Below, piece after piece: positions 1 to 58,690 of a stretch of 64,000 nt of DNA (positions are counted from its first letter, which is position 1; the number at the start of each line of letters is the position of its first letter). Below the pieces are notes generated by a model that did no database searches, was not told the DNA's origin, and saw nothing but the letters and a program-made list of their open reading frames with translations. A program made the translations under genes and the position numbers. Origin of the DNA: Spirochaetales bacterium (GTDB taxonomy: Bacteria; Bacillota; Clostridia; Christensenellales; UBA1242); the NCBI GenBank assembly GCA_050178795.1, contig JBFXFT010000001.1, positions 57,513 to 121,512 of the forward strand, given 5' to 3'.

Positions 1-479
1 AAATTGCCCATACTTGCACGAACGACTTTGTCGTTGTAGACATCTACACAGTCTATCATAAATATGTTTTTAAAGTTGCTCGCTGCGGCACTTCTAATGA
101 TTGCGCCAACGTTGCCTGGGTCTTGAATATGCTCTAGAACCAAAAAGTTATTGTTATCTATTACCATTGGCGTCAAGTATTTGGTTTTTACGGTTGCTAA
201 AATGCCCTGAGGGGTATCTGACGGTGAAATTGCCTTTAAAACGCGCTCATCTGTATAAATAATATTGCATTTTATTAAGTGAGCATACTTTGAGTATGTG
301 TCTTTTTTATTTTCATCAATAAAAAGATTAACAAACTCAAGTTTAGAGTTTATTCCCTCATCAATTATTTTGTGCCCCTCTAAAATTGCAAGGTTAAGTA
401 GTTTTCGGTACTTTTTTTGTTTTAAACTGCTCGCCTCTTTAATTATAGGGTTTTCAAGCGATTTTATTACTTGCGCCAT
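1..479 (-). CDS. TrmH/SpoU-family RNA 2'-O-methyltransferase (3' end cut by window edge)
   Basis: Absent from the ORF track because it is open at the window edge. Manual minus-strand translation from ATG at 479..477 gives MAQVIKSLENPIIKEASSLKQKKYRK...FLVLEHIQDPGNVGAIIRSAAASNF.... The EHIQDPGNVGAIIRSA block matches SpoU methylase motif 1. It lies directly downstream of rplT. Confidence 0.75.
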   Translation of the reverse strand, partial: MAQVIKSLENPIIKEASSLKQKKYRKLLNLAILEGHKIIDEGINSKLEFVNLFIDENKKDTYSKYAHLIKCNIIYTDERVLKAISPSDTPQGILATVKTKYLTPMVIDNNNFLVLEHIQDPGNVGAIIRSAAASNFKNIFMIDCVDVYNDKVVRASMGN

Positions 480-530
480 AATTTTCCTTTTTAAAAAAGG
501 CTCTTCCTACTAAGAAAAGCCATTTTTTAG

Positions 531-896
531 TTATTTTGTTTCCTTAGCTAGTGCTTTTTTTGCGGTTTCTGCTAAATTTGCAAAAGCTGCTGCGTCTTTT
601 ACTGCTAGTTCAGCTAGAACCTTGCGGTTAAGCTCAACATTTGCTAGTTTTAATCCATGCATTAAGTTGCTGTAAGAAAGTCCACTCAACCTTGCGGCTG
701 CGTTTATTCTTGTAATCCATAGAGAGCGCATATCTCTCTTTTTTAGTCTTCTGCCGATATAAGCATATTGACCACTCTTCATAACTGCTTGGCGAGCCAC
801 CCTATAAAGTGTACTCTTGGTTGCTCTGTAACCTTTTGCAGCCTTTAAAATTTTTCTACGTTTTTTTAGTGCGTTTACGCTTCTTTTAATTCTCAT
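531..896 (-). CDS. rplT: 50S ribosomal protein L20
   Basis: 121 aa. [25 protein letters not shown]... is the canonical bL20 N-terminus. SD GGAGGG lies upstream. Last gene of infC-rpmI-rplT. Confidence 0.97.
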
Positions 897-906
897 TACT
901 ACCCTC

Positions 907-1101
907 CTAACCTTGTATTAGTTGCTTAATCATTTTTTCTTGATTCTTAGCAACACTCACATTCTTTTTTAGTTGATTTTTTCTTTTTCTACTCATTTTG
1001 GTCAAGATGTGAGTAGTATTTTGTTGTCCCCTCTTAACTGAGCCAGAAGGTCTTAGTTTAAAGCGCATTTTAGCTGCTTTATTGGTTTTCATTTTTGGCA
1101 T
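907..1101 (-). CDS. rpmI: 50S ribosomal protein L35
   Basis: 64 aa, [24 protein letters not shown]..., typical bL35. Sits between infC and rplT. Confidence 0.95.
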
Positions 1102-1145
1102 AATTTCCTAATCTCCTTAAATTTTTGTGTTTTTTCTTTTCTTTT

Positions 1146-1658
1146 TTATTTTTTTGGTGTTAAAAACATTAAAACCATAAAGTCATTAACCATAGGTTTG
1201 TTTTCAACTGAACCATATTCGCTAGTTAATTCTGCGAATTTAAGCATAGTTTCAATGGCTTGGTCAGAGAAAGACCTTTCACGACCGCGAAGTTTTATGC
1301 TTACTTTAACTTTGTCCCCATCGGCTAAAAATGAGTTTACTTGTTTTGCCTTAAAGTTCATATCGTGCTCGCCTATTCCAAGGCTAAGACGCATACCTTT
1401 AATTTCAACCATTTTTTCGCGTTGTTTTTTGCGTGCTTCTTGCTCTTTTTTGGCTAGTTCAAACTTGTACTTGCCATAATTCATAAGTTTGCACACAGGT
1501 GGAGTTGCAGTAGGGCTTATTTTTACTAAGTCTAAATTTTGATCATCAGCAATTTTATTTGCTTCCATGGCACTTACTATGCCAAGTTGTTCTCCATTTT
1601 CACCAACAAGTCTTACTTCTTTGTCTCTGATTTGGTCGTTAATTTGTAAATCTTTTAT
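1146..1658 (-). CDS. infC: Translation initiation factor IF-3, probable non-AUG (ATA) start
   Basis: The track ORF (1146..1568) begins at an internal Met. The frame stays open upstream and encodes the conserved IF-3 N-domain (IKDLQINDQIRDKEVRLVGENGEQLGIVSAMEA). SD GGGAGGG is followed 7 nt later by ATA at 1658..1656. IF-3 genes classically use AUU/AUA starts. 513 nt gives 170 aa. Confidence 0.85.
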   Translation of the reverse strand: MKDLQINDQIRDKEVRLVGENGEQLGIVSAMEANKIADDQNLDLVKISPTATPPVCKLMNYGKYKFELAKKEQEARKKQREKMVEIKGMRLSLGIGEHDMNFKAKQVNSFLADGDKVKVSIKLRGRERSFSDQAIETMLKFAELTSEYGSVENKPMVNDFMVLMFLTPKK

Positions 1659-1820
1659 AACGAATCCCTCCCGAATTGTTTATTTACCCATTAAAAAGTG
1701 GGTATTCAAAATACCCACTCAATTACTATAATACAAGGCAAAAGCCTATAAATATTAATATAATTTACCGTGCAAAGTCAGTTCCTTGCAGGTGAGAAGT
1801 GGATACTTCTACTTTCAAAC
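1659..1820 (-). promoter_or_regulatory. infC-rpmI-rplT leader with attenuator hairpin (L20-leader-type candidate)
   Basis: This is the ~160-nt leader between the promoter (1827..1855) and the infC SD. It contains an intrinsic-terminator-like hairpin, GTGGGTAT-TTTGA-ATACCCAC followed by TTTTTAA on the minus strand (1691..1718), only ~30 nt before the SD, so no promoter can fit downstream of it. L20-mediated attenuation at such a leader is established in B. subtilis. Assigning this leader to that class is inference. Confidence 0.5.
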
Positions 1821-1826
1821 ATTGCA

Positions 1827-1855
1827 AATATACCAAAAATAGTACCATTTGTCAA
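1827..1855 (-). promoter_or_regulatory. sigma-A-type promoter of the infC operon
   Basis: Minus strand reads TTGACA, 17 nt, TGgTATATT (perfect -35, extended -10), immediately after the thrS stop. Confidence 0.55.
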
Positions 1856-1865
1856 CACTTTTTTA

Positions 1866-3638
1866 TTATTTTTTGCAAACCTTGTTCTCAATCTCTTCTA
1901 CTATGTTTTTGTAGAATTCTTGCCTATTTACATCGCTAGTTTGCTCGCCTTTACTTGTCCTTACAGCAAGTTTTTTGCTTTCAACCTCTTGTTCGCCAAT
2001 TATTAGCATATAGTTAACTCTATCTATTTGCGCTTCACGTATCTTTTTGCCTATTTTTTCGTTTCTAACGTCTGCATTCGCACGAACATTTAGTGCCTTT
2101 AGTTCCCTTTCAATTTCTAACGCTGTGTCTACTGCTTTTTCAGTTACACTTAACACTCTAACTTGCTCTGGTGCAAACCATAATGGGAAGTGTCCAGCAT
2201 ATTTTTCAATTAATAGTGCCAAAGTTCTTTCATAACAGCCTATTACGCTTTGGTGAATGACGTAAGGGCGTTGTTTTTGTCCGTTTTCGTCTACATAGTT
2301 CATATCAAAACGCTCGGCAAGTGCAAAGTCTATTTGCACTGTAAACATAGTGTCTTCCTTGCCATAAACATTCTTTGCTTGAATGTCTAATTTAGGACCG
2401 TAGAAGGCTGCTTCTCCGTCTGCTTCCGTATATTTTAGACCAAGTTTATCTAAGATGTTTTTTAAGATTATTTGAGTAGTTTCCCAAGCCTCAGGCTTGT
2501 CAATATACTTGCCTTTATTGTTATTTGGGTCCCACTTACTAAATCTAAATGTTACATCGTGTCTTAACCCTACCGCTTCAAGTGCATAGTAAATAAAGTC
2601 AAGAGCGTGCTTAAATTCTTGTTCTATTTGGTCTGGTCTACAAATTATGTGTGCGTCTGCTAGTTCAAATTGCCTTACCCTAATAAGACCGTGCATTTCG
2701 CCACTTGATTCATTTCTAAATAGATTGCTGTTTTCAAGATATCTTAAAGGAAGTTCTTTATAACTATGAATTTCGCTCTTATAAATCATAAATTGGAAAG
2801 GGCAAGTCATAGGGCGAAGTGCAAACACCTCTTTGTCTTTTTCCTCGTCACCTAAAACGAACATTCCTGATTTGTAGTGTTGCCAGTGACCGCTTATTTT
2901 GTATAGGTCGCTCTTTGCCATAAATGGAGTCCTAGTAACCATATAACCGCGTTTTTCGCTTTCATCTTCAACAAAGCGTTTTAAAGTATTAATCATTTTA
3001 GCACCACGAGGCATAAGTAGCGGTAAACCTTGACCTATTACGTCCTCAGTCATAAATAGTCTTAGTTCTCTGCCAAGTTTGTTATGGTCGCGTTTTAGAG
3101 CTTCTTCCCTTTGCTCTACATACTCTAATAAGTCCTTTTTGTTAGGAAAAGCAAGCACGTAAATACGAGTTAACATTTTGTTCTTTTCGCTTCCGCGCCA
3201 ATATGCGCCGTTTGCCTTATCAATTTTGTATGCCCAATTTTGTAGTTTTGAAGTGTTTTCTACATGTGGACCTCTGCATAGGTCAATAAACCCATCGCCA
3301 GTTTTATAAGCGCTTATTTCCTCGCCCTCTGGTAGTTCATTGATAAGTTCAACCTTATAAGGATTGCTTGCAAATAGTTTTAAGGCATCTTTTTTGTTTA
3401 AAACCATACGCTCAAAAGGTTCATTTGCATTTAATATCTTTTGCATTTCCTTTTCTATGGCCTTAAAGTTTTCTTGCTCTATTTTATCATCTATGTCAAA
3501 GTCATAGTAAAAGCCGTTGTCAATGCTTGGTCCTATTGTCAACTTTGCCTCAGGGTAAAGCCTTAGTACTGCCTTAGCAAGTACGTGCGCTAGACTATGT
3601 CTTCCCATATCTAATTTTTCATCTAATTCGATTTTCAT
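1866..3638 (-). CDS. thrS: Threonine--tRNA ligase (lacks N-terminal TGS domain)
   Basis: 590 aa. It starts near the editing-domain motif (GRHSLAHVLAKAV, compare B. subtilis RHSTAHLLAQAI). Class II core motifs are present (FALRPMTCPFQ, RVRQFELADAHI, GPKLD, VIHQSVIGCYERT). SD AGAGGAG. Preceded by a Thr T-box. Confidence 0.95.
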   Translation of the reverse strand: MKIELDEKLDMGRHSLAHVLAKAVLRLYPEAKLTIGPSIDNGFYYDFDIDDKIEQENFKAIEKEMQKILNANEPFERMVLNKKDALKLFASNPYKVELINELPEGEEISAYKTGDGFIDLCRGPHVENTSKLQNWAYKIDKANGAYWRGSEKNKMLTRIYVLAFPNKKDLLEYVEQREEALKRDHNKLGRELRLFMTEDVIGQGLPLLMPRGAKMINTLKRFVEDESEKRGYMVTRTPFMAKSDLYKISGHWQHYKSGMFVLGDEEKDKEVFALRPMTCPFQFMIYKSEIHSYKELPLRYLENSNLFRNESSGEMHGLIRVRQFELADAHIICRPDQIEQEFKHALDFIYYALEAVGLRHDVTFRFSKWDPNNNKGKYIDKPEAWETTQIILKNILDKLGLKYTEADGEAAFYGPKLDIQAKNVYGKEDTMFTVQIDFALAERFDMNYVDENGQKQRPYVIHQSVIGCYERTLALLIEKYAGHFPLWFAPEQVRVLSVTEKAVDTALEIERELKALNVRANADVRNEKIGKKIREAQIDRVNYMLIIGEQEVESKKLAVRTSKGEQTSDVNRQEFYKNIVEEIENKVCKK

Positions 3639-3649
3639 TTTTTCTCCTC

Positions 3650-3917
3650 TTTTTTATAAATTGTGTTTTGTTTAAATAAAAACTCGTCCGTTAACAAAAC
3701 TGTTAAGGACGAGTTAAATTTTTCCCGTGGTTCCACCTTAATTGATTAATAAAAACATACTAATCCACTTAGAGTTTGCAATGTCGTTTGCAAATACGCA
3801 TAGTGTAAAGGTGGTTTCAAGTTTAAGTCTAATAAGTTACTTCCAGCCTTGGTAACTCTCTCTAAATTAGATTGTTTAAACTCTACTTGTCTTTTAATAA
3901 ACCTATGTATTGAGTTG
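3650..3917 (-). promoter_or_regulatory. T-box riboswitch leader, Thr (ACC) specifier, controlling thrS
   Basis: Minus strand carries the AGAGAG box and a specifier-loop context TTGAA-ACC-A (ACC at 3813..3815). The T-box sequence is AATTAAGGTGGAACCACGGGAAA (3721..3743). It is followed by terminator CTCGTCCTTAACAG-TTTT-GTTAACGGACGAG plus TTTTTATTT (3674..3714). Confidence 0.85.
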
Positions 3918-3923
3918 TAATAA

Positions 3924-3951
3924 ATTATACTCAAAAATATTATTAAGTCAA
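3924..3951 (-). promoter_or_regulatory. promoter of thrS T-box leader
   Basis: Minus strand reads TTGACT, 16 nt, TATAAT. Confidence 0.5.
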
Positions 3952-3977
3952 CAAAATTTGTGTCTTTACTTTATTTT

Positions 3978-6719
3978 TTACATAACTTGCGCTGGATCGT
4001 CACCAGATAATGAGGTTAAAACTATTTGGTATCCCTCGTGGTCGGTCAATGTTAAAGTTGAACTTGTCTTTGTTATAGCAAATGCACTATATTGATATCC
4101 ATCCTCATAATCAACTTGGGTTACTATATAGTTGCCAATAACTTCATACGAACCAAAAACCATATCTGTTAAAATATCATCTACGTATGCTTGAGCCACA
4201 AAAGTAAAGTCTGAGCCGAATGTATATACATAATAACTGTTTTGTTCCTCTACATAATATTGTCCAGCAATATAAACATCTACTTCTTTTATTAGTTCTG
4301 CCATAACTGATTCATCATATGGATCAACAAATTTGATTAATGATGGACTTGGCACTATTTGGTATATCTCATATTGTGTCATCTCATTGTATGTGCTAAC
4401 AAATATAACGTAATTGCCAATAACTTGATAAGTGCCATCTACTGTTTGGGTTAATTCACCACTGTCATAAGCATAAGCACTTAAAGTGAAATCTGAACGG
4501 AATACGTATTCGTATATAGAATCATTATAATCATTCATATCTACATAGTAATATGAGCCAGCAAGGTTGTAGTCTACTTCCTTAGTTAATTCAGCCATAG
4601 TGTTTTCTTCACTGTAATCTGTAAATGTTAAAGTAGTTGTGCTCATAGTAACTTTATAGGTTTCGTATTGAGTCATTTCGTCAAAAGTAGTTTCAAATAT
4701 TACATAATTACCTATAACTTTATAAGTACCAGTTACTGTTTGGTCTAGTTCGCCATCGATGTAGTTGTAAGCATTTAAACTGTAATCGCTACCGAACACA
4801 TATTCTCCTAAGCTAACTTCTGATGAATAGTAATCTACCATATAGTAAGAACCCACTATATTTACATCTACTTCCTTAGTTAATTCAGCCATAGTGTTTT
4901 CTTCACTGTAATCTGTAAATGTTAAAGTAGTTGTGCTCATAGTAACTTTATAGGTTTCGTATTGAGTCATTTCGTCAAAAGTAGTTTCAAATATTACATA
5001 ATTACCTATAACTTTATAAGTACCAGTTACTGTTTGGTCTAGTTCGCCATTGATATAGTTGTAAGCATTTAAACTGTAATCGCTACCGAACACATATTCT
5101 CCTAAGCTAACTTCTGATGAATAGTAATCTACCATGTAGTAAGAACCCACTATATTTACATCTACTTCCTTAGTTAATTCAGCCATAGTGTTTTCGCCAC
5201 TATAGTCTGTAAATGTTAAAGTTGTAGTTCCCATAACCATTTTATATGTTTCGTATTGAGTCATTTCGTCAAAAGTAGTTTCAAATATTACATAATTACC
5301 AATTACATCGTAAGTACCAGTTACTGTTTGGTCTAGTTCGCCATTGATATAGTTGTAAGCATTTAAACTGTAATCGCTACCGAACACATATTCTCCTAAG
5401 CTAACTTCTGATGAATAGTAATCTACCATGTAGTAAGAACCCACTATGTTTACATCTACTTCCTTAGTTAATTCAGCCACAACTGTTCCGTCATTTAAAT
5501 CCATAAAGGTTAAAGTTGTTGTACCCATAGAAACTTGATATACCTCATATTGAGAGGTTTCATCAATAGTAGTCTCAAGCACTACGTAGTTGCCAAGCAT
5601 TTTATAAGTGCCAGACATTGTTTGACTTTCTTCACCAGCCACATATTGAATAGCGGTCAATGTATAATCACTGCTAAATATATACTCTGCTATTGAATCA
5701 TCTTCGGAATAAGTATTAAGCATATAATATGAACCAACTATATTTGAGTTTACTGACTCTTTAGTTAACTCAGCTACAACCGAGCCATCGTTTAAGTTTT
5801 TGAAAGTTAGAGTTGTTGTACCCATAACCACTTGATACATTTGATATGAAGTGTACTCATAGTAATCAACTGCAAATAACAAATAGTTGCCAATTACACT
5901 ATAAGTGCCAGACATAGTTTCGCTATCTTCACCTGTTGTATATTGAGTAGCAGTTAATGTGTAATCATTTTTAAAAACAAACTCAATAACAGAATTTTCA
6001 TCTGAAATTTCTTGAGTCATATAGTAACTGCCTACAATATCTACATCTTGCTCTCTAGTTAATGATAGTGTGCCGTCTTCTGTATCTGTAAATACAAGTG
6101 TGTTAGTAGTTGCAGTAAAAGGATATACTTGCAAACTGCCTTCTTCAAGTAAATCACTAAATATTATGTATGAACCAATAGTTTTATATGTTCCAGTTTC
6201 TGAGTTGGTTATACCAGTGGTATCATAACTATTTACCGTTGCACTTAAATTTGCATTAAGGGTAATTTCAAAAAGATATGCGTAACCATCATGTTCCGAA
6301 GTACCACAGTAAGTTCCTGTTATATCGGAACTTGTAGTAATTTTATCAAGTTCATAAAGTCCTACATTGCTAGAAAGCATTAATTCGGTAACAGTAATAC
6401 TGTATGAATAACTTTCTGTTACAGAAGTACTATAGGTAAGCACTAGAGTATTTGTATTCATAGAATAAGTACCACCAAAATTTGTTTGACCATATTCTGA
6501 ACTATACATCTTTTTTACAAATGTATTATTTGCAAAAAAGTCAAAGTATGTAAGGTCTCCAGCGTAAGAATCATAGTAAGTGTATTCACCAACTAGACTT
6601 AGGCTTTCTTCCTCTGGTGTGTCGCCGCCAAAACCGAAGTCAATTTCGCAACCACTAAACCCAACCACGCCAATTAGTAGTAATAAAACTACCGCAAAGT
6701 TTTTTAGTATTTGTTTCAT
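3978..6719 (-). CDS. Large modular surface lipoprotein, nine tandem ~98-aa beta-rich modules, function unknown
   Basis: 913 aa. Signal peptide plus lipobox (MKQILKNFAVVLLLLIGVVGFSG|C). SD GAGGAG. The mature part is nine repeats with the pattern VGSYY..-EYVF.SDY.L.A..Y..GE..QT..GTY.VIGNY..F-..YE.Y.V.M.TTTLTF.D-..AELTKE. Confidence 0.8.
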   Translation of the reverse strand: MKQILKNFAVVLLLLIGVVGFSGCEIDFGFGGDTPEEESLSLVGEYTYYDSYAGDLTYFDFFANNTFVKKMYSSEYGQTNFGGTYSMNTNTLVLTYSTSVTESYSYSITVTELMLSSNVGLYELDKITTSSDITGTYCGTSEHDGYAYLFEITLNANLSATVNSYDTTGITNSETGTYKTIGSYIIFSDLLEEGSLQVYPFTATTNTLVFTDTEDGTLSLTREQDVDIVGSYYMTQEISDENSVIEFVFKNDYTLTATQYTTGEDSETMSGTYSVIGNYLLFAVDYYEYTSYQMYQVVMGTTTLTFKNLNDGSVVAELTKESVNSNIVGSYYMLNTYSEDDSIAEYIFSSDYTLTAIQYVAGEESQTMSGTYKMLGNYVVLETTIDETSQYEVYQVSMGTTTLTFMDLNDGTVVAELTKEVDVNIVGSYYMVDYYSSEVSLGEYVFGSDYSLNAYNYINGELDQTVTGTYDVIGNYVIFETTFDEMTQYETYKMVMGTTTLTFTDYSGENTMAELTKEVDVNIVGSYYMVDYYSSEVSLGEYVFGSDYSLNAYNYINGELDQTVTGTYKVIGNYVIFETTFDEMTQYETYKVTMSTTTLTFTDYSEENTMAELTKEVDVNIVGSYYMVDYYSSEVSLGEYVFGSDYSLNAYNYIDGELDQTVTGTYKVIGNYVIFETTFDEMTQYETYKVTMSTTTLTFTDYSEENTMAELTKEVDYNLAGSYYYVDMNDYNDSIYEYVFRSDFTLSAYAYDSGELTQTVDGTYQVIGNYVIFVSTYNEMTQYEIYQIVPSPSLIKFVDPYDESVMAELIKEVDVYIAGQYYVEEQNSYYVYTFGSDFTFVAQAYVDDILTDMVFGSYEVIGNYIVTQVDYEDGYQYSAFAITKTSSTLTLTDHEGYQIVLTSLSGDDPAQVM
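4574..5455. repeat. Three near-identical in-frame 294-bp tandem repeats inside the lipoprotein gene
   Basis: Units run 4574..4867, 4868..5161 and 5162..5455. The landmark CTACTTCCTTAGTTAATTCAGCC recurs at 4574, 4868, 5162 and 5456, exactly 294 nt apart. Units 1 and 2 differ at only a few bases. More diverged units flank them across ~3978..6630. Confidence 0.95.
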
Positions 6720-6767
6720 AAATTCTCCTCAAAAATTTATTTTTTATATAAAATTTTTTTCAAAATT

Positions 6768-7352
6768 TTAAAGCACTTCAACTATGCCTGAATCGCTAAA
6801 TTCAGCATATAAAATTATATTTTGTATAAGAATAAAAGTATACGTTGATGATGTACTTACAATAGAACCACTACTTCCACCAGAGTGCCAACCTACAAAA
6901 TGGTATCCTGAATTTGCGGTTGCTATAATAGTAACAGAGGAATCCTCGTCAAATGTGCCCGCACCAGTAACTACGCCGCCAACACTTCTATTTAATGTTA
7001 CCGTGTAAGTCAAAACAGTAGTTTGTGTAAATGTAGCAACATATTCTCCGCTTGCTTGTGCTACAAAACTATAGCTACTTTCTGTTGAAACAACAGTGCC
7101 ATTTAAAGACCAACTGGTAAAAAGATACCCACTCTCTGGGGTTGCAGTTAAAGCAACTGTTTCACCAACTTCATAGTCCCCCTCTCCAGTGACAGTACCA
7201 CTGCCAACTGTAGATAGTGTAATTGTTATAACGGTTGGGCTACCATCATTAAATACTGGTTTTGCAACAGTAATACAGCCAGTTAAAGAAGTGGCTGTAA
7301 TTAATATAAGTATTAAGGAAAATAATTTTTTTAAATGTTTTTTCATATTCAT
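6768..7352 (-). CDS. Lipoprotein with two InlB-B-repeat-like (bacterial Ig-like) domains
   Basis: Start is placed at MNMKKHLKKLFSLILILITATSLTG|C (lipobox), not the upstream track start at 7430. There are two copies of the pattern G.GTVTG.G.Y..G..V.L.A.P.SGY.F..W (GSGTVTGEGDYEVGETVALTATPESGYLFTSW and GGVVTGAGTFDEDSSVTIIATANSGYHFVGW). Confidence 0.65.
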   Translation of the reverse strand: MNMKKHLKKLFSLILILITATSLTGCITVAKPVFNDGSPTVITITLSTVGSGTVTGEGDYEVGETVALTATPESGYLFTSWSLNGTVVSTESSYSFVAQASGEYVATFTQTTVLTYTVTLNRSVGGVVTGAGTFDEDSSVTIIATANSGYHFVGWHSGGSSGSIVSTSSTYTFILIQNIILYAEFSDSGIVEVL

Positions 7353-7459
7353 ACTACCTATATGTTTTTTATACTCAAATATTGTAACATAGCGAAAACA
7401 AATATTCAATATTTTTTTAAAATAAATCAAAAATAACTATCTATTTTTCGTATACATAA

Positions 7460-8314
7460 CTATATGGCTTGTTTTTTAGTAAAAAGTTTAGAAAATAATG
7501 TTTTAATATCTCTCCTTATGTCTTTTAGTTGCCAAGGAAGCGATATTAAAAGAGGTAAAACTAAAAAGTAAACAAATACACCCGGAAGTATCCAAAAAAG
7601 TGGCCAGTATTTTTCTTGCCCTGCATAGGCACCAAAAGGAATCGTCTTCATAAAATCAGGAGTGAATATACTAAATAGAATTGCCAAATCGTCGTTTGGT
7701 CCCCAAATTAATGATGGGTTTGTATAACCTATTGCAAGAATATCGCTGCCCCTTAAAGATACGATTCCAAGTTCAGACTGCAACACTTGGTTGCATATTA
7801 TAAACAACATAACGGCTGTCGCATAAAATGGCATCTTCCAAATTCTTTTATAGTCAATGGTATGCACTTTAAGTAAAACCATAAGTAGTGGTGCAATTAT
7901 AATAATCATGTGGCAAACATAAAACCTTATGTTATCTAGCGTCAAAACATTTTCACCCAAAGCCTCGGTTGGAATGACAAGCGCCAAAAATCCACTAATA
8001 ACACCCAAATAGAACATAAAATCTTTTGAATATTTATTTTTGCTCAAATAAAAAAATGGAAAAGTTAAAACACTGACAGCGCAAATATTTATAAAGCCAA
8101 TATCTCTTATTGCCTTTAAAAAATTATCGCTATACGGTGGAAAAGTAACCTTTAAAAAATGTAGTGCCAAATTAAACGCAAGTAGACTAAATAGCACTAT
8201 ATTTTTTGTTTTTGTACTCTTGTTTTTAAGCAAAAAATATAACCCCACAATAATTCCTGCCGTCAAAAATATAAAAAAGAAATACGGCAAATTAAAAAAT
8301 TCAACAACAACCAT
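7460..8314 (-). CDS. Polytopic integral membrane protein, unknown function (possibly YwaF/TIGR02206-like)
   Basis: 284 aa with about 7-8 hydrophobic spans and SD GGAG. The family guess comes only from overall look and size. Confidence 0.6.
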   Translation of the reverse strand: MVVVEFFNLPYFFFIFLTAGIIVGLYFLLKNKSTKTKNIVLFSLLAFNLALHFLKVTFPPYSDNFLKAIRDIGFINICAVSVLTFPFFYLSKNKYSKDFMFYLGVISGFLALVIPTEALGENVLTLDNIRFYVCHMIIIIAPLLMVLLKVHTIDYKRIWKMPFYATAVMLFIICNQVLQSELGIVSLRGSDILAIGYTNPSLIWGPNDDLAILFSIFTPDFMKTIPFGAYAGQEKYWPLFWILPGVFVYFLVLPLLISLPWQLKDIRRDIKTLFSKLFTKKQAI

Positions 8315-8458
8315 AATATGTTCTCCTATTGGTTTTTTATAGTAACTTTTTTATAATAGCACAACAAATTCTTTAAGTCCATACTATGTCAAAAAAAATT
8401 GTTGCAACAAACAATGGTAAAGTGCTATACTCAAAATGATAAAAATAGGAGGTTTAAT

Positions 8459-9067
8459 ATGATTTATTATATTGCAGATACCCATTTTGGGCATAAAAAC
8501 ATTATAAGAATGTGTAATAGACCTTTTGCATCCATTGACGAAATGAATGAGACATTAATTAATAATTGGAACAAAAAAGTAAAACCCACTGACACAGTTT
8601 ACATAATTGGCGATATGTTTCATCACTTAAATCGCGACCCTTCCGAAATTTTGGAAAGGCTAAATGGAGAAAAACATTTAATACTAGGCAATCACGACCC
8701 TAAGTGGCTAAGAAACTATCCTCAAACAGCGAAGTATTTTAAAACCATAAGCAGAATGGAACTTATAAATGTAACTGCTGGCACTGCCACACTATGCCAC
8801 TACCCTATGTTCTCTTTTGAAGGCAAATATTTAATTTATGGTCATATACACGAAAAAAGACAAGAACCCTTGTGGAGTTATACTAAGGATAATGAATTTA
8901 TGTTAAACGCTGGAGTAGATGTAAATAATTTTGAACCAGTGAACTTTTATGAATTACAAAAAAACAACGCAATTTACAAAGCAAAAAATTATGATAAACC
9001 TACCGAATGGAAAAATGAAAGAGGCGAAGCCAAAGAAACCGAAGGTGAAAATAATAAAACCCAGTAA
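8459..9067 (+). CDS. Metallophosphoesterase family protein
   Basis: Start is at ATG 8459 behind SD AGGAGG. Motifs in calcineurin-like order: MIYYIADTHFGH, VYIIGDMFH, ILGNHD, GHIH. Confidence 0.8.
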   Translation: MIYYIADTHFGHKNIIRMCNRPFASIDEMNETLINNWNKKVKPTDTVYIIGDMFHHLNRDPSEILERLNGEKHLILGNHDPKWLRNYPQTAKYFKTISRMELINVTAGTATLCHYPMFSFEGKYLIYGHIHEKRQEPLWSYTKDNEFMLNAGVDVNNFEPVNFYELQKNNAIYKAKNYDKPTEWKNERGEAKETEGENNKTQ

Positions 9068-9083
9068 ACACTGGGTTTTTTGT
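9057..9083 (+). terminator. intrinsic terminator after the metallophosphoesterase gene
   Basis: ACCCAGT-AAAC-ACTGGGT followed by TTTTTTG. Confidence 0.7.
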
Positions 9084-9301
9084 TGTTTTAAAAATCCCTT
9101 TTCAAATAAAACACACACAGACTGCTTAATTATAAGTTTAACAAAAAAAAGCAATATAAGCACTACTGTTAATTAGTGTAAATAAAGTAGCAGAAATTTA
9201 AAGATTTTTAAATGATTTAATCACAAATAAGTTCTTAATCGTATTTATACATTAAGGTTTTATTTTGGGGTTAAAGGGTTAAAAAGATTAAATTTATGCG
9301 G

Positions 9302-9331
9302 ATACAAAAAACGCTTTGCGTTGCAAAGCGT
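9302..9331 (-). terminator. intrinsic terminator after the tRNA cluster
   Basis: Minus strand reads ACGCTTTGC-AAC-GCAAAGCGT followed by TTTTTTG. Confidence 0.75.
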
Positions 9332-9337
9332 AATTTA

Positions 9338-9424
9338 TGGTACCGAAGGCCGGACTTGAACCGGCACGAGATTGCTCCCGAGGGATTTTAAGTCCCTTGT
9401 GTCTGCCTATTCCACCACTTCGGC
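9338..9424 (-). tRNA. tRNA-Leu (anticodon TAA), type II, CCA encoded
   Basis: GCCGAAGTGGTGGAATAGGCAGACACAAGGGACTTAAAATCCCTCGGGAGCAATCTCGTGCCGGTTCAAGTCCGGCCTTCGGTACCA. Folded by eye: anticodon loop CTTAAAA, long variable arm, T-loop GGTTCAAGTCC. Confidence 0.9.
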
Positions 9425-9438
9425 ATAATTAATGAGAT

Positions 9439-9512
9439 TGGAGGCACCACCCAGACTCGAACTGGGGATAAAGGCTTTGCAGGCCTCTGCCTTACCACTT
9501 GGCGATGGTGCC
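9439..9512 (-). tRNA. tRNA-Cys (anticodon GCA), CCA encoded
   Basis: GGCACCATCGCCAAGTGGTAAGGCAGAGGCCTGCAAAGCCTTTATCCCCAGTTCGAGTCTGGGTGGTGCCTCCA. Anticodon loop CTGCAAA, discriminator U. Confidence 0.9.
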
Positions 9513-9544
9513 AATTATTTAATTAACTCGCCATTATAAAAAAA

Positions 9545-9619
9545 TGGAGCGGAAGACGAGATTCGAACTCGCGACACCTGCCTTGGCAAGGCAGTGCTCT
9601 ACCACTGAGCCACTCCCGC
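9545..9619 (-). tRNA. tRNA-Gly (anticodon GCC), CCA encoded
   Basis: GCGGGAGTGGCTCAGTGGTAGAGCACTGCCTTGCCAAGGCAGGTGTCGCGAGTTCGAATCTCGTCTTCCGCTCCA. Anticodon loop TTGCCAA. Confidence 0.9.
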
Positions 9620-9636
9620 ATATTATGTATTTGTAT

Positions 9637-9713
9637 TGGTGGGAGCAACAGGACTCGAACCTGTGACCCTCTGCTTGTAAGGCAGATGCTCTAGCCAACT
9701 GAGCTATGCTCCC
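9637..9713 (-). tRNA. tRNA-Val (anticodon TAC), CCA encoded
   Basis: GGGAGCATAGCTCAGTTGGCTAGAGCATCTGCCTTACAAGCAGAGGGTCACAGGTTCGAGTCCTGTTGCTCCCACCA. Anticodon loop CTTACAA. Confidence 0.9.
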
Positions 9714-42607: not shown

Positions 42608-42619
42608 TTCTTGACAATC

Positions 42620-42962
42620 GTTACCTAGCCTATAAGCCGAGTTTTGTATTAGATGGTTATCTATCTAGGCTTATTATTACTAACAAGCTCAAGCGGTGTA
42701 TAGGGCTCAGCGAACAGCCGAATTTGCCCTTTTTACCTTGCACCAAGTGGGGTTTACAGAGGATTAAAGTCACCGATAATCCTAGTGTGCTCTTACCACG
42801 CTTTTCCACCCTTGCTCTTACTCCTTACGGAGCAGTGAGCGGTATATCTCTGTTGCACTTTCCTTCAGGTCACCCTGACTGGGAGTTACCCAGCACCCTG
42901 TTCTATGGGGCTCGGACTTTCCTCGTGAGTAATTAACTCACGCAACCATCTGGCTAACTAAC
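42620..42962 (-). ncRNA. rnpB: RNase P RNA, bacterial class A
   Basis: Minus strand reads GTTAGTTAGCC...GAGGAAAGTCCGAGC...GGGTGCTGGGTAACTCCCAG...GGAAAGTGCAACAGA...GGTAAGAGCACAC...GTAAACCCCACTTGGTGCAAGG...GCTTGAGC...CCTAGATAGATAACCATC...ACAAAACTCGGCTTATAGGCTAGGTAAC. The P1 ends pair (GTTAGTTAGCC / GGCTAGGTAAC). The order of blocks is collinear with E. coli-type M1 RNA. Confidence 0.92.
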
Positions 42963-50263: not shown

Positions 50264-51769
50264 TTACACCAAATTTAACTTAATTTTGGCGTTAGATATA
50301 AACGCTTTATCTGTTAGGCTTTCTATTTTTATTCCTATCATTTCACCTTTCAAGTTCGGTCTTATTTTACTTGTGGTCGCCTTGCCTGAAATAGCAAAAG
50401 TTTTAGACGTACTTTCTGTAAAAACGGTCAAATTTATGTCGTAATAAGTAAGAAGGCTAATTTCCTTTACCACTTTTTCGGTTGCAGGGTAGCCTAAGTC
50501 ACTTATTGGAGAATACCAATGTTTTACTGTGTTATCTTCAAAAAATTTGCCATTATTCTCAAGTTGTCCTAAGTTTTGGCTGTACCCAGTATTAAAACAA
50601 AACACCATTTTGCTCATGCTTTCTACTTGAATAGAGGTCATACTAACGACGTCAATGCCCCTTATTATGTTGAATGTATTTGTTTTTACATCTAACTCAA
50701 TAAGTGTGTTATTGATGTGATCTGGGTCACTTTCTGAGCCTATTTCGTTACTATCTGGGTAGTTTAATTTACAAGAGACATAGTATTTACCTTCGTGGTA
50801 GTTTGCCACTGCCTGCTCGTTATAAATGCCGTCAAATAAAGAGTCTATTTTTAGATCTATTTTTGAGGTAGTTATGCCATCAAACTCGTAAATTCCGTCC
50901 TTTGTAAGCATTAAAATTTTGTCACCGCAAACACAAATTGTGTTTTTGTAAATTCTATTGCCAGATACAAATAGTTGACTAACATTTATTTCGTCGGAGC
51001 CATCATAAGTCTTTATTTTTGCTATTCCAAAGTCTCTAAACGCAAAAACATAACCCAAAAAACTTATTACCTTGTTTATTCCGCCACGCATATCGTTCAT
51101 TTCTATATATGGGTTGCTTGCATCTGTTAGGTCTGTTGTCCATGTTGTTGGGTCCAAATTTGAGGAGTACCTAATTAAATTGCGCTCGCCACCAATCGTT
51201 GCAAAAAGTTTGTCCTTATGCTCGCAAAGTGAACTTATTTTTGGAGCGGTTGAAACCACTTGTGGCACATCTTCTCCGTTCCAATATGCCATTCCGTCTG
51301 CTTCACTGGTCAAAATTATGGTGTCTTTACCATTTATTTTGTAGTTCATAGCAACAGGCCTTTCGGTAAATGTTATGCCACTAAGTAAAAAGAAAGTTGG
51401 AGTAATGCTAAAAAGCCTTGCGTAATAAATTAAATGGTCTTTTGTATATACCATTAGTTTATCTATTCTTTTGCCTTGAATTTCGCTATAGTGTTTAAAG
51501 TGCCAAATTGAGTCAATCTCTTTTCCGTCTGGTAGAGTTGGCAGATTTTCTATGTTTGGGTCATCTGCTGTTTCTGGTATTAACAGTTCTGCAAAACCAA
51601 GTCCCTCAACTAGAGCGCCATTTTCAAAATTATAGTTATAGGCATTTGTAGCGTATTTAAAGGGCATAATGTTCTCTGCAATCTCTGTATTTACACCATT
51701 TTTAAAGTCGCTTATATTTAAAGTTACTTCTTTTGGGGTTTGATATTTTAATGTCTTAGCATAAAACAT
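50264..51769 (-). CDS. Phage structural protein candidate (501 aa; possible tail/nozzle, beta-propeller-like)
   Basis: Start is at ATG 51769 behind SD TAGGAGGTGG, overlapping the upstream stop (TAATG). The sequence is beta-rich and repetitive (…DKLFATIGGERNLIRYS…, …DKILMLTKDGIYEFDG…). The role is inferred from position only. Confidence 0.45.
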   Translation of the reverse strand: MFYAKTLKYQTPKEVTLNISDFKNGVNTEIAENIMPFKYATNAYNYNFENGALVEGLGFAELLIPETADDPNIENLPTLPDGKEIDSIWHFKHYSEIQGKRIDKLMVYTKDHLIYYARLFSITPTFFLLSGITFTERPVAMNYKINGKDTIILTSEADGMAYWNGEDVPQVVSTAPKISSLCEHKDKLFATIGGERNLIRYSSNLDPTTWTTDLTDASNPYIEMNDMRGGINKVISFLGYVFAFRDFGIAKIKTYDGSDEINVSQLFVSGNRIYKNTICVCGDKILMLTKDGIYEFDGITTSKIDLKIDSLFDGIYNEQAVANYHEGKYYVSCKLNYPDSNEIGSESDPDHINNTLIELDVKTNTFNIIRGIDVVSMTSIQVESMSKMVFCFNTGYSQNLGQLENNGKFFEDNTVKHWYSPISDLGYPATEKVVKEISLLTYYDINLTVFTESTSKTFAISGKATTSKIRPNLKGEMIGIKIESLTDKAFISNAKIKLNLV

Positions 51770-52338
51770 TATAACCACCTCCTAACAGGCATTTTTATGT
51801 CGCTCTTTTTGCGACTTGCCACTAATAGTGCATCCTTAAAGCGTTGTTCCCAAGTTGTAGCTTCGTCAAATAGTCCACTTATTAATGAATATTCTGCTGT
51901 AACTCCATATGCCACAATTCTTTCTGTCAACTTGCCACCAAAAGTTTCAATATTGCCATCTAGAGTAGCGCTTTCTGGTGCGTAAGAATACTCTAAATTG
52001 TAAGTTCCGTTTTCTAAAACTATTGCGGTAGGAAACATTTTATATTTTACATTTACACCATTTTCGTCAGTAAGTTTAATTACATTTATTAAACGTTTTG
52101 CAAGGCTACTTAATGCTATTTCTTCGTCTAGCACTATAACCTCTTCTTCATAATTTAGGGGTATGTAGTCTGTTGCTATTTCGTCATAGACTAAATTTAA
52201 ACACCTAACTAATAACTCTAAATTTTTGGTGGTTAGTGCCGAAGGCTCTGTTACCTCCCCACCAAATGTTGTAAGTTCTAAAACGTCCTCCATTTGCAAA
52301 TATGTTGCAACAAGTTTTATTATTTCTGTAACACTCAT
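51769..52338 (-). CDS. Phage structural protein candidate (189 aa; possible head-tail adaptor)
   Basis: Intact ORF translationally coupled to the 501-aa gene. The size and position after the capsid gene resemble podovirus adaptor proteins. No motif recognised. Confidence 0.4.
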   Translation of the reverse strand: MSVTEIIKLVATYLQMEDVLELTTFGGEVTEPSALTTKNLELLVRCLNLVYDEIATDYIPLNYEEEVIVLDEEIALSSLAKRLINVIKLTDENGVNVKYKMFPTAIVLENGTYNLEYSYAPESATLDGNIETFGGKLTERIVAYGVTAEYSLISGLFDEATTWEQRFKDALLVASRKKSDIKMPVRRWL

Positions 52339-54761: not shown

Positions 54762-56678
54762 TTATTGTGTTTGTAAAAGTGCTTTGTGTTCGTTTATGTG
54801 TTCTAAAAGCATATCCTTTAATTTTGGTTTTTGAAGTACTGTCTTTTCATACTCTCCACCTAACATAAAGGCTATGTGCTCGTCTATGTGAAGTTTATGG
54901 TCGTCAATTTCTAGGACTTCTATTTTTTTAGTGCTATATGCAAAGTCTAAGTTTTCCCTTTTTGCCCTGTCTATTTGAAGTTCGTTAAGGTCACTTCTAT
55001 CTTCCCAAACTCCAAACCCCAACATTTCAAGGGTTTTAGAGCGTATGCGATTACTTAATTTTCCATTTTCATCCTGCAATAGACCAGCCTTTAAAAGTTC
55101 AAAAATCATATTTCGTTTTTGGGTTAGAGTTTCGCCTAGTTCTGTTTGCGTTTCAAAAATTATATCATCGCTATTGATGTTTGAAGACTCAAAGTAAAAC
55201 ATTTCTACCGAGCCATCTTTACCTATTATTTTTGCAAGCCTACTGCCAACAGTAAATTGTTTATACAGTCTTAAAATTTGAGCGGCTAGGTGCTTTGCGC
55301 AAAATTTTACTTGATCTGCAACGCTATTTAGCCTTGTATTGTCTTGTTCTAGTAAAATTTCTAGCGCGTTACCGCTTATGGTTGAAGTGTTAATTTTGGA
55401 GTTTAGCATAAGGTCGCTCACGCCACTTATTTGTATGAATTCATTAAGTAAGCGCTCTTCTTCGTCGCTAAAATCGCTTGGAATTTCGCCAGAGTCCATA
55501 ATTTTTGGTGCAGAACTGCCTTGCCTATAAATTAGTACTTTTCCTGGGCTTAGCCCTTCTTCTTCTAAGTTGTCTACGTCTACACTACCGTCCTCTACGG
55601 TTAGAATACCCATACTTATACGATTCAAAAACTCGTGTTTTCTGTTTTTTACTGCGTTGTACGCCCTTTGCACTGGAATTAGTCTTTCAATTATGCTGGT
55701 GCCCCAAAAACTGCCTGGTTGTTCTATTGAGTCTTGCTTAATAAAGGGGAAGCCGCGCTTGTCTTCTACCCTGTTTACATAAGGAAGTTCCCCTATGTAT
55801 AAAAGTTTGTCGCCTGCCACTATTATTACTCTTCCATTTGGATGGTCAACACTTGGCGACTCGTACTTTTCTATTACTATTGCGTGGTTACTTTTTACCT
55901 TGCTTATTACTTTTGGTACACTTGCCGTATAGCCAAGTCCACCAATGGTAGATATGTTGTCAAGCGAGAATACATCAATATTTTCACCCTTAACCTCGGC
56001 ACCCCAAATGCTTTTTATGTCGTCAATATGATAGGCTTTTGCGTGAATTATGCTCCTGCAATCGTCAATGCTTGTAGCGTTATTGCTCTCTGGAAAAATT
56101 TCATAAGGAGGGCAAACCGTCACATTTATGTCGCCCTCTTTAATTTTGTTTCCTTCCTCGTCAATTCCTACAATATTGCCTGCTTTTGAGTCCCAAGTAA
56201 CCTTGTAAAAACTTGTGCCACAAATTTCGCTCCATACAGTTGCGTCGCTAATTTTTTCGCTCAAACTTAGTTTATGGTAAGCCGAGTTTATTATGTTTTT
56301 ACTTACTTTTGCAGTGTTTATGTCTGCTTCACTTGTGCTTGCTGGCACAACAGACATTGTTGGCCTAACCTTACTAAGTTTACTTATTCGCACTTCTACA
56401 AGTGGCGCTATGTGGTTATAAATTTCGCGTTCTTGCCAAAAATATTGCTTTTCGTAGTCCTCAATATCGCCTGTTCCTGCAATGGTGCAATACTGATTTC
56501 CAAGTAAAAAGTTCATATTTAATTGCCACTGATTTTCGTAAGATTTGCGCTCTTGTTGCCTAACCTTAAAGTCGTCTCTTACTTCCTGTACTAAGTCTTC
56601 CAGATATTTGTCGCCATATATGTGGCTATAAATATGGTCGTTGTTAGTTGGTTTTTTGTTTTTTGTTTTACTAATCAT
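54762..56678 (-). CDS. Phage portal protein
   Basis: 638 aa. Position lies between the terminase and scaffold/capsid genes. N-terminal ...SYENQWQLNMNFLLGNQY... is portal-like. Confidence 0.7.
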   Translation of the reverse strand: MISKTKNKKPTNNDHIYSHIYGDKYLEDLVQEVRDDFKVRQQERKSYENQWQLNMNFLLGNQYCTIAGTGDIEDYEKQYFWQEREIYNHIAPLVEVRISKLSKVRPTMSVVPASTSEADINTAKVSKNIINSAYHKLSLSEKISDATVWSEICGTSFYKVTWDSKAGNIVGIDEEGNKIKEGDINVTVCPPYEIFPESNNATSIDDCRSIIHAKAYHIDDIKSIWGAEVKGENIDVFSLDNISTIGGLGYTASVPKVISKVKSNHAIVIEKYESPSVDHPNGRVIIVAGDKLLYIGELPYVNRVEDKRGFPFIKQDSIEQPGSFWGTSIIERLIPVQRAYNAVKNRKHEFLNRISMGILTVEDGSVDVDNLEEEGLSPGKVLIYRQGSSAPKIMDSGEIPSDFSDEEERLLNEFIQISGVSDLMLNSKINTSTISGNALEILLEQDNTRLNSVADQVKFCAKHLAAQILRLYKQFTVGSRLAKIIGKDGSVEMFYFESSNINSDDIIFETQTELGETLTQKRNMIFELLKAGLLQDENGKLSNRIRSKTLEMLGFGVWEDRSDLNELQIDRAKRENLDFAYSTKKIEVLEIDDHKLHIDEHIAFMLGGEYEKTVLQKPKLKDMLLEHINEHKALLQTQ

Positions 56679-56680
56679 AA

Positions 56681-57245: not shown

Positions 57246-57253
57246 AAAATTCC

Positions 57254-58690
57254 TCAATATCTATTAGTTCTTTTTAGTCGTTTATAGAGGCGCTCTTTAT
57301 CCTTTTGAATTATGCTCTTTTGCACTAAGTGTTTTGGCACTTCTGGTCTACTCATTATGTAATATCTCAGTTCGTCAAGTGCATGGTCGTTTTGTTTTTT
57401 GGGTCTGTCATTGTCGCTCCACCAGTAACTTTTAATTTCTCTTATTAAGTTGACGCAGTTTTTAAATATGTATAGTTTTACTTCGCCGTCAGCGTTTTTT
57501 AGGTAACTTTTTACCCTTTGAATACCGCTAAAAAGGTCTTTATTTACGTTTGAATTTACTTGAATTCCATACTCGTAAAAAAGTTCAACCACGCTCTTTG
57601 TTCCACTTAACGTTCTTTGGTTTGCAGCGGAATCAATTAGCGAATTAATCATACCGTTACTGTTCCTGTGCCAACCTAAATTATCACTTATTTCGTGTAT
57701 TCTTTTTGAGTGATAACTTATGTCTCTATCTGCCTCATAGTGTTCTGCAATTACATAAACTGTTCCATCATAGTCAACCGCATACCAGTGCGCAGAGAGT
57801 GGATTTTTTAAACCAGGGTCTATGCTTATGTTATCGTACCAGTCCTTTGGCACTTCAAATGGGTCTATGACATGCACGCTCTCTTCAAAAGCGCTATATA
57901 CCATACCCCCTGTGCCCACAAACTTGCCATAACAGCGACTGTCTAACTCTTCTTCACTTAGACTACTCGTTATTAAATTTACCTCTTCTTCTTTTAAAAA
58001 AGGGTTGTCCTCCCAAGACATATTTATGTGCCAAACTTCTCTATCGTTATTTTTGTTTAAGTAAATTTCTTCATACACCCAAGTTAAGCCTTTTAGTGGC
58101 GTCATTGTGCCAAATATTTCCCCGCTTTTATCTAGTACGCGCATTTTGCACTCTAAATAAATATCGTAGGGCGGTTCTTCGTCAAACCACACATAGTCTA
58201 AACTTGTGCCTTGAAATTTTTCGCGCCCTTGGTCGCAACTTTTAAAGCCAATTTTGCTTATTCCACCAAATATGTTCTTTATTAAAATATGGTCTATTAC
58301 TCCGCTTTCTGGGCTGTCTTTCCTGCCTGATAGCATAACTATGTTTACAATCCAGTCTGGGTTAAGATAGTACAAAATTTTTTGCTGAGCTACGTCCCTT
58401 TGCACCTGAGTAGATAGTGAAACCACCCAACCTGATGTGTCTTTTTTGTTTGTTTTGTAGGGGTGTATGCCACGAGCGAGATATATTGTTTCAACCGCGC
58501 CACATTCCGTCTTTCCTGTTCTATTTCCTCCAAAAACCCACCTGTTTCGTTTAGTATTTTTGTGAAACTCTAACTGTTTAGCGTGAACTTTTTGTCCCTT
58601 ATTGTATTTTAAAACCCTGTTTTTTACTGACCTTACATTTTGCTCTTTTTCAATTTCTTTTAGTTTTTCAATTATGTCTTTTTCTTCCAA
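57254..58690 (-). CDS. Phage terminase large subunit
   Basis: 478 aa (TTG start, SD AGAGGTG). Walker A WVFGGNRTGKTECG, Walker B LDYVWFDEEP, and a C-terminal nuclease-type region ...IDSAAN...HALDELRYY.... Confidence 0.88.
   Translation of the reverse strand: MEEKDIIEKLKEIEKEQNVRSVKNRVLKYNKGQKVHAKQLEFHKNTKRNRWVFGGNRTGKTECGAVETIYLARGIHPYKTNKKDTSGWVVSLSTQVQRDVAQQKILYYLNPDWIVNIVMLSGRKDSPESGVIDHILIKNIFGGISKIGFKSCDQGREKFQGTSLDYVWFDEEPPYDIYLECKMRVLDKSGEIFGTMTPLKGLTWVYEEIYLNKNNDREVWHINMSWEDNPFLKEEEVNLITSSLSEEELDSRCYGKFVGTGGMVYSAFEESVHVIDPFEVPKDWYDNISIDPGLKNPLSAHWYAVDYDGTVYVIAEHYEADRDISYHSKRIHEISDNLGWHRNSNGMINSLIDSAANQRTLSGTKSVVELFYEYGIQVNSNVNKDLFSGIQRVKSYLKNADGEVKLYIFKNCVNLIREIKSYWWSDNDRPKKQNDHALDELRYYIMSRPEVPKHLVQKSIIQKDKERLYKRLKRTNRY

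Follow-up and report, generated by a model that had tools for sequence, protein, structure and literature searches.

The Vlp and Vsa lipoproteins of wall-less mycoplasmas are size-variable repeat proteins in which an N-terminal lipid anchor is followed by in-frame tandem repeats that vary in number by recombination or slippage; the repeats are short, mostly unstructured peptides, and the genes belong to multigene phase-variable loci. A different design is represented by the Periscope Proteins, which are variable-length surface stalks of high-identity tandem domains (e.g., Sgo_0707 SHIRT, Rib, and SasG) and which are defined operationally, in the methods of the study that described them, as tandem folded domains of >50 amino acids (aa) with ≥80% identity (PMC8201768). 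A third group, comprising the domain families Lipocalin_4 (PF13648), DUF5640 (PF18692), and NlpE_N (PF04170), has eight-stranded antiparallel domains of ∼90 to 100 aa that follow a lipoprotein signal peptide and are often present in 2 to 6 tandem copies; a literature search on Lipocalin_4 and DUF5640 recovered no functional study. Here we describe a gene in a 64-kb stretch of a metagenome-assembled genome (MAG) labeled "Spirochaetales bacterium" (contig JBFXFT010000001.1; the whole stretch is referred to below as the window) that encodes a 913-aa putative lipoprotein composed of nine tandem modules. With moderate confidence, we regard its product as a lipid-anchored cell-envelope protein of nine lipocalin-like barrels that would form a variable-length, Periscope-like surface stalk or coat of a Bacillota-like organism.

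A putative lipoprotein gene composed of tandem modules

The gene has an unbroken reading frame across the whole open reading frame (ORF), and its start region was annotated as follows.

3978..6719, minus strand: coding sequence of the repeat lipoprotein, 913 aa, ATG start (NCBI MGD9900969.1, locus tag AB7S44_00310)
6725..6730, minus strand: Shine-Dalgarno-like GAGGAG, 5 nucleotides (nt) before the ATG, read from the sequence
6648..6719, minus strand: signal peptide and lipobox, aa 1 to 24 (...VGFSG-C24), a motif read by eye

The N-terminus of the protein, MKQILKNFAVVLLLLIGVVGFSGC, has two lysines and a hydrophobic core followed by F-S-G-C and fits the lipobox rule as read from the sequence; at the level of the motif, MKQILKNFAVVLLLLIGVVGFSG-C24 agrees with [LVI..][ASTG][GAS]-C. 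Cleavage of the signal peptide and lipidation at Cys24 would leave a mature protein of 890 aa (100.7 kDa, predicted isoelectric point 4.05) of unusual composition, with 12.0% Tyr, 13.7% Thr, 2.2% Lys, 0.2% Arg, and no Trp at all, compared to 4.0% Tyr and 9.3% Lys for the remainder of the window.

Beyond the signal peptide and lipobox, the protein consists only of nine modules of ∼98 aa. A profile built from the nine-row alignment of these modules and searched against all frames of the window gave nine consecutive matches (aa ∼38 to 908) and no match elsewhere, and with this profile no non-module (head) domain was found in the protein. The modules, numbered from the N-terminus, are listed below with their relation to M6, the module used for the structure model.

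6336..6608, minus strand: M1, aa 38 to 128, the most diverged module, 20% protein identity to M6
6051..6335, minus strand: M2, aa 129 to 223, 31% protein identity to M6
5754..6050, minus strand: M3, aa 224 to 322, 51% protein identity to M6
5460..5753, minus strand: M4, aa 323 to 420, 58% protein identity to M6
5166..5459, minus strand: M5, aa 421 to 518, 19 nt differences from M6
4872..5165, minus strand: M6, aa 519 to 616
4578..4871, minus strand: M7, aa 617 to 714, 3 nt differences from M6
4284..4577, minus strand: M8, aa 715 to 812, 56% protein identity to M6
3981..4283, minus strand: M9, aa 813 to 913, the membrane-distal end, diverged, 35% protein identity to M6

A preliminary description of this stretch, made from the sequence, had proposed a lipobox signal peptide followed by nine head-to-tail modules, with outer units that are progressively diverged, and both proposals agree with the ORF reading and the profile matches. 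Protein identity to M6 drops toward the array ends, from 94 to 99% among M5 to M7 (98 aa each) to 58 to 51% in M4, M8, and M3 and 35 to 20% in M9, M2, and M1; the landmark motifs are clear in M3 to M8 and partly retained in M1, M2, and M9.

Predicted fold and relatives of the module

An AlphaFold2 model of M6, with the nine modules supplied as the alignment, has eight consecutive antiparallel strands (predicted local distance difference test [pLDDT] score of 90.8, predicted template modeling [pTM] score of 0.80), and this predicted structure is the eight-stranded antiparallel up-and-down beta-barrel of the calycin/lipocalin-like fold. A Foldseek search of the PDB with this model recovered calycin-type barrels as the nearest solved structures (TM scores of 0.57 to 0.65); these include ToxS periplasmic domains, BT_0846 (2m4l, TM 0.65), BACUNI_03114 (2mhd, TM 0.62), and the NlpE N-domain (2z4h, TM 0.63), and further neighbors are fatty-acid-binding proteins (FABPs), lipocalins, and designed barrels. 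The module profile matches 2mhd by sequence as well (E 0.18).

A search of the profile against 1.84 billion representative proteins returned only the protein itself below an E value of 1e-10, together with 18 others at 1.5e-6 to 1e-3. Eight of the 10 matches that were scanned exceed the Pfam cutoff of Lipocalin_4, DUF5640, or NlpE; the number of tandem copies ranges from one to about six, and most of these proteins have a lipoprotein signal peptide. Those passing PF13648, for which the gathering threshold is 22.4 bits, are P0002, P0004, P0005, P0007, P0009, and P0010 (library-wide E values of 1.5e-6 to 2.6e-4). Alignment of the module alignment to five Lipocalin_4-positive domains with hhalign gave 97.9% probability (E 5e-13 over 87 columns) for domains that were picked by the same profile and are thus not independent of it, and a profile of those five domains in turn matches 2mhd (E 9e-4) and, weakly, FABP and ToxS. 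The module also shares with these families a motif order in which G-x-aromatic in strand 1 is followed by an "F..dgT" strand, "GTY.v.Gn.l", and a final "L.L/F" strand.

The module also differs from these families. A Pfam scan of the whole protein produced no Lipocalin_4 match even at E ≤1, and the weak whole-protein matches to HVO_0513_N, DUF4618, AraJ, and TIGR03066 (Pfam and NCBIfam) were below threshold and were treated as noise. Where the G-x-W motif of the families has its Trp, at the beginning of strand 1, all nine modules have Tyr (G-S/E/T/Q-Y, so that the family's G-x-W becomes, for example, G-S-Y), as does an orthologue described below. The array also stands apart in its nine copies, of which three are nearly the same in DNA sequence, and in having no close relative among the 1.84 billion representatives. 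A word-indexed search of 5.8 billion proteins returned only the 913-aa protein itself; a further search of this type, started from an alignment of the window protein with that orthologue, gave no sequence at all, the query included, and carries no weight. Pattern-based scans of GTDB species genomes and JGI metagenomes found no relatives, and the module is present in none of 80 thrS loci of Clostridia.

Judged by its predicted structure and the profile comparisons, the module is a far-diverged, Trp-free relative of the Lipocalin_4/DUF5640/NlpE_N group with a calycin-type barrel and not a formal member of a Pfam family. The preliminary description had suggested a small beta-barrel or lipocalin-like unit, a suggestion that the AlphaFold model, the Foldseek neighbors, and the hhalign comparison support, and had called the module unrecognized; the latter needs qualification, as the module is remotely related to Lipocalin_4/DUF5640.

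Sequence divergence and probable exchange among the modules

The central modules are distinguished at the DNA level by the following block.

4573..5479, no strand assigned: recently homogenized tandem block, with outermost 31-mers that are present three times in the window and exact repeats of 184 and 137 nt

A single array is recognized by Tandem Repeats Finder (4573 to 5540, period 294, 3.3 copies, 93% matches), and the longest exact internal repeat is 184 nt, with another of 137 nt. In the preliminary description, three units were called almost base-for-base identical; these are the same repeats as M5 to M7, phase shifted by 4 nt. The wording is accurate for two of them, since 4574 to 4867 and 4868 to 5161 have 3 mismatches in 294 positions (99.0% identity), but applies only loosely to the third (5162 to 5455), which has 22 differences from the former and 19 from the latter (92.5 to 93.5% identity). 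Synonymous divergence (dS) is 0.035 for M6 and M7 and 0.20 to 0.25 for M5 compared with M6 and M7, and it exceeds 1 (saturated) for every other module pair. The ratio of nonsynonymous to synonymous divergence (dN/dS) is ∼0.2 throughout the array, including in the older modules, which indicates a real, constrained gene; together with the saturated dS values, it points to an array that is old and constrained, with a young center.

The edges of the high-identity block are sharp and lie at aa 421 and aa 714, exactly at module boundaries. They also coincide with the predicted domain boundaries, as the final strand of a unit reaches residue 97 and the first strand of the following unit begins at its residue 7. 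Within the block, the differences are unevenly spread: M5 and M6 differ at 1 position in unit nt 1 to 149 and at 18 positions in nt 150 to 294 (binomial P 3e-5), M5 and M7 differ at 4 and 18 positions in the same intervals (P 0.002), and the differences between M6 and M7 are confined to unit nt 30, 111, and 115. Because a comparable 5'/3' skew was not found in the older module pairs, this mosaic points to tract exchange between units, by gene conversion or repeated unequal exchange, rather than to uneven constraint. We considered, and rejected, one unequal crossover in a two-unit ancestor as the sole source of M6, since the 5' half of M6 resembles M5 and the 3' half resembles M7 and the hybrid expected from such an event would have the opposite pattern; repeated conversion would fit M6 better than one crossover. 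The dS pattern, the sharp edges, and the mosaic differences are thus in line with the recent unequal recombination or gene conversion that had been proposed from the repeats themselves.

Repeat number and an independent assembly

An exact look-up of the 913-aa protein in the contig index gave no match, and it was the neighboring genes that led to independently assembled contigs of the same region. The ThrRS encoded in the window has a near-identical copy in the Logan assembly of SRR27751817, the DNA differing at one position in the first codons; this run, from the same population, is the only other occurrence. Searches of the literature for the run and for the locus-tag prefix gave nothing relevant. 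In that assembly, one contig (L081) equals positions 1 to 4602 of the window with one mismatch, and a second (L082) equals positions 5450 to 9407 exactly, and the intervening 4603 to 5449, inside the M5 to M7 block, is absent. On the left edge of the block, the 31-mer at 4572 to 4602 is unique in the window and that at 4573 to 4603 occurs three times; on the right edge, the 31-mer at 5450 to 5480 is unique and that at 5449 to 5479 occurs three times. The Logan contigs therefore end at the last unique 31-mers, which means that the k=31 graph branched exactly where the structure of the window predicts, and branching at the predicted points in turn implies that unit-to-unit junctions are present in the reads and that the repeat is real. 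The proneness to assembly failure that the preliminary description had anticipated is thereby seen to the base at both edges.

These data also bear on whether the gene has been distorted by assembly, such that the tandem block exists but its three-unit count, and with it the nine modules and 913 aa, is wrong because more copies were collapsed into three or because strain variants of one or two units were threaded one after another. The exact repeats of 184 and 137 nt are longer than the usual short-read k-mers, the k=31 assembly failed to cross the block, and the source sequence is itself a MAG. Against such a distortion, both Logan contigs end at predicted branch points, so that at least one unit-to-unit junction is in the reads; M5 can be separated from M6 and M7 at 19 to 22 sites and M6 from M7 at 3, which provide anchors for an assembler; and the reading frame is intact through the whole gene. 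We consider a wrong count quite unlikely on this evidence, although the number of near-identical units in the MAG is the assembler's estimate because of the long exact repeats. A separate contig end falls elsewhere in the region: a four-tRNA cluster lies at 9341 to 9713 on the minus strand, and L082 ends at 9407, within the first tRNA, which suggests another repeat-induced assembly break.

Gene neighborhood and related loci

Two genes of note lie upstream of the repeat lipoprotein gene in the window, and a related locus carries a fused counterpart.

6768..7346, minus strand: lipoprotein gene adjoining the repeat gene upstream, 192 aa with lipobox LTGC and two InlB-type B-repeat (Flg_new_2) domains (Pfam)
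7460..8314, minus strand: TMEM164/TP0381-like integral membrane acyltransferase gene (Pfam, 39.9 bits), directly upstream of both lipoprotein genes
L087:7234-9651: 805-aa fusion in which a B-repeat pair precedes module-like barrels, encoded at the corresponding site upstream of thrS

Relatives with ThrRS 74 to 78% identical to that of the window keep the order Asp23 - DAK2/FakA - ... - Flg_new_2 protein - (CmpB) - YtxC - thrS - infC - rpmI - rplT, and the relatives examined have CmpB and YtxC genes in place of the TMEM164-type gene. In one of them (L093, from run DRR337531), a 505-aa lipoprotein is encoded between ytxC and thrS, with five modules that are only 16 to 39% identical to one another. 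It can be aligned colinearly to aa 1 to 478 of the window protein (25% identity, BLASTP E 2e-11) and has an N-terminus in common with it (...SGC-x-ID-x-GF...LSL-x-GEYTY-x-D), and it likewise has G-x-Y in place of G-x-W; by position and sequence comparison, it is an orthologue with five diverged units instead of nine. The gene that immediately precedes thrS in GCA_001263535.1, as in two copies from metagenomes, specifies a lipoprotein of 805 aa, in which two Flg_new_2 domains (95 bits) are accompanied by a low-complexity stretch rich in Pro and Glu and by some five weak stretches that resemble the module. Lipoboxes are present in both proteins (...ALVSLSG-C in the L093 orthologue and ...TVFISG-C in the 805-aa fusion). 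At the thrS-upstream site of two other relatives, no such gene was found.

Because related genomes hold a five-module gene, a fused gene, or no gene at this site, the locus, as judged from these sequence comparisons, is host to a fast-evolving, lineage-restricted lipoprotein with changing module number and domain partners. The B-repeat and module types, which are encoded by two adjoining genes in the window and by one fused gene in the GCA_001263535.1 relative, hint through this split/fusion relation that the two window lipoproteins may act together. Weak module-like stretches also occur in small or fragmentary proteins near thrS, some of them behind B-repeat domains (L093:1-759, a fragmentary module protein at the contig start; L093:4253-4714; L093:7528-8163; and L087:4499-5467), and a small family of paralogues of the barrel module, specific to this lineage, may exist.

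Host lineage and other features of the window

Several regulatory and RNA features of the window, together with two phage-like genes among the housekeeping genes, are given below.

3702..3910, minus strand: probable T-box leader before thrS (RF00230), 79.9 bits, E 7e-18, below the Rfam gathering score of 93
3951..3924, minus strand: promoter-like TTGACT-16-TATAAT by the T-box leader
1684..1820, minus strand: ribosomal protein L20 leader before infC-rpmI-rplT, 60.2 bits, just above threshold
42617..42961, minus strand: class A bacterial RNase P RNA, 263 bits
54762..56678, minus strand: P22/SU10-type portal
57254..58690, minus strand: large terminase

The NCBI name of the MAG raises the question of whether the protein is instead a periplasmic or outer-membrane lipoprotein of a two-membrane spirochaete, with a periplasmic structural or chaperone-like function and not an exposed stalk. 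The source name "Spirochaetales bacterium" fits this explanation, but the ThrRS matches that carry organism names are from Clostridia, Bacillota, or Eubacteriales (∼60 to 63% identity), the window has Bacillota-like content (T-box and L20 leaders, RNase J, PcrA, and GatCAB), and the ytxC-thrS-infC-rpmI-rplT synteny in the ytxC-bearing relatives with 75 to 78% ThrRS identity is Bacillota-like as well. We therefore regard a spirochaetal periplasmic or outer-membrane lipoprotein as very improbable. The NCBI taxonomic label may be wrong, and the host is probably an uncultured, Bacillota-like bacterium with a single membrane; in such a cell, the lipoprotein would be placed on the outer face of the cytoplasmic membrane.

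The T-box leader begins ∼70 nt past the lipoprotein stop codon, with no terminator detected between them, and one internal stem of the RF00230 model is missing from its alignment. The portal and terminase genes mark a phage-like region (54762 to 58690 on the minus strand, possibly extending over ∼50 to 61.6 kb) that is probably a prophage or a prophage remnant; the ORFs at 50264 to 51778 and 59705 to 61576 have no Pfam match.

Comparison with described surface proteins and alternative functions

We propose that, after cleavage and lipidation of Cys24, the protein would be held on the outer face of the cytoplasmic membrane, with nine small eight-stranded calycin-type beta-barrels extending outward as a string joined by ∼7-residue linkers. 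The array would be old, with most modules saturated at synonymous sites and under purifying selection, and its center would have grown or been homogenized lately by in-register unequal recombination and gene conversion of the 294-base-pair unit, giving rise to M5 to M7. The same mechanism may make module number labile over evolutionary time, as seen in the five modules, about five modules plus B-repeats, nine modules, or none of related genomes, and could also generate length variation between strains. In this analysis, the most likely role is a structural or interactive one at the cell surface, as a variable-length stalk or coat alongside the neighboring B-repeat lipoprotein, and an enzymatic role is unlikely.

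The likeness to Periscope Proteins lies in the predicted surface location, in DNA identity high enough for intragenic recombination, and in short linkers within a confident multi-domain model; under the operational definition of that group (PMC8201768), M5 to M7, at 98 aa and 94 to 99% identity, qualify, as 3 of the 9 modules. A model of M4 to M6 (pLDDT 88.1) has 7-residue linkers between the barrels and suggests that they are held in a fairly fixed arrangement; the whole protein may be rod-like. Foldseek searches with the three-module model gave only propeller-like matches (TM 0.11 to 0.24) and no solved multi-domain analogue. In contrast to Periscope Proteins, the predicted anchor is an N-terminal lipid and not a C-terminal LPXTG motif, and the repeated domain is a beta-barrel and not an Ig-like or SHIRT domain. 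The Mycoplasma Vlp and Vsa proteins differ in other respects, as the repeats here are 98-aa folded barrels by prediction, the gene is single copy, and no invertible promoter or homopolymer switch was seen; a search around the gene for terminators and invertible promoters or elements recovered only AT-rich chance matches and no terminator.

A number of points weigh against a lipid-anchored, Periscope-like surface stalk or coat. Lipidation is predicted from a motif read by eye, surface exposure is likewise a prediction, and the NCBI label, if right, would mean two membranes and an uncertain location. For the fold, the single-module Foldseek E values are all 7e-3 or worse (none below 1e-3), and when modules were scanned singly for Lipocalin_4, 4 of 9 matched with a best E value of 7.6e-4, which is below the Pfam threshold and weaker than the 24- to 25-bit matches (E values of 3.5e-5 to 7.4e-5). 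The pTM of 0.79 for M4 to M6 comes from an alignment of seven rows, all of them repeats of this same protein, so rigidity may be overstated. Compared to Periscope Proteins, the protein lacks a separate adhesive head, old and diverged modules predominate, with stalk-like high identity in only 3 of 9, and the defining trait of that group is strain-to-strain variation in repeat number, where the differences seen here are between species. Finally, the gene neighborhoods of three remote relatives had no recurring partner genes and offered no functional clue.

The main functional rival to a stalk or coat is a multivalent binding protein, in which each barrel would bind a small hydrophobic molecule, lipid, or glycan and the array would raise capacity or avidity for scavenging or sensing. 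The fold neighbors of the module are ligand-binding barrels, and its single-domain relatives bind or sense (ToxS with bile salts, NlpE in envelope sensing, and FABPs and lipocalins with lipids); purifying selection on every module, including the old ones (dN/dS ∼0.2), and the lack of a separate functional head domain are also compatible with a binding role. On the other hand, classical lipocalins are much larger than the ∼98-aa barrel, and the depositions of its nearest solved relatives (2m4l and 2mhd) describe them only as uncharacterized and name no function. Apart from structural Gly, Tyr, and Leu, the modules have no prominent conserved polar or catalytic residues, and no transporter or sensor genes were found near the repeat lipoprotein gene. 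We consider multivalent binding unlikely and retain the stalk or coat as the favored explanation.

Significance

The gene is a sequence-isolated addition to the lipocalin-like lipoproteins and the tandem-domain surface proteins, not a new kind of system, and nothing here overturns current understanding. A bolder possibility, which we put forward only tentatively, is that it represents an undescribed length-variable stalk of one uncultured Bacillota lineage, in which Trp-free lipocalin-like barrels on an N-terminal lipid anchor would be gained or lost within populations as 98-aa units by recombination and would form a two-part system with the B-repeat lipoprotein. The split versus fused arrangement with the B-repeat domains provides a testable hint of such a functional partnership.

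The locus further provides a clean, base-exact example of how tandem-domain genes break short-read assemblies, and because of such breaks, gene lengths in MAGs should be counted as estimates. A protein annotated as hypothetical now has a confidently predicted fold and a module profile, and the "high-identity tandem domain" surface design would, on this reading, also be realized in an uncultured lineage, with lipid-anchored barrels of the lipocalin-like type as its units.

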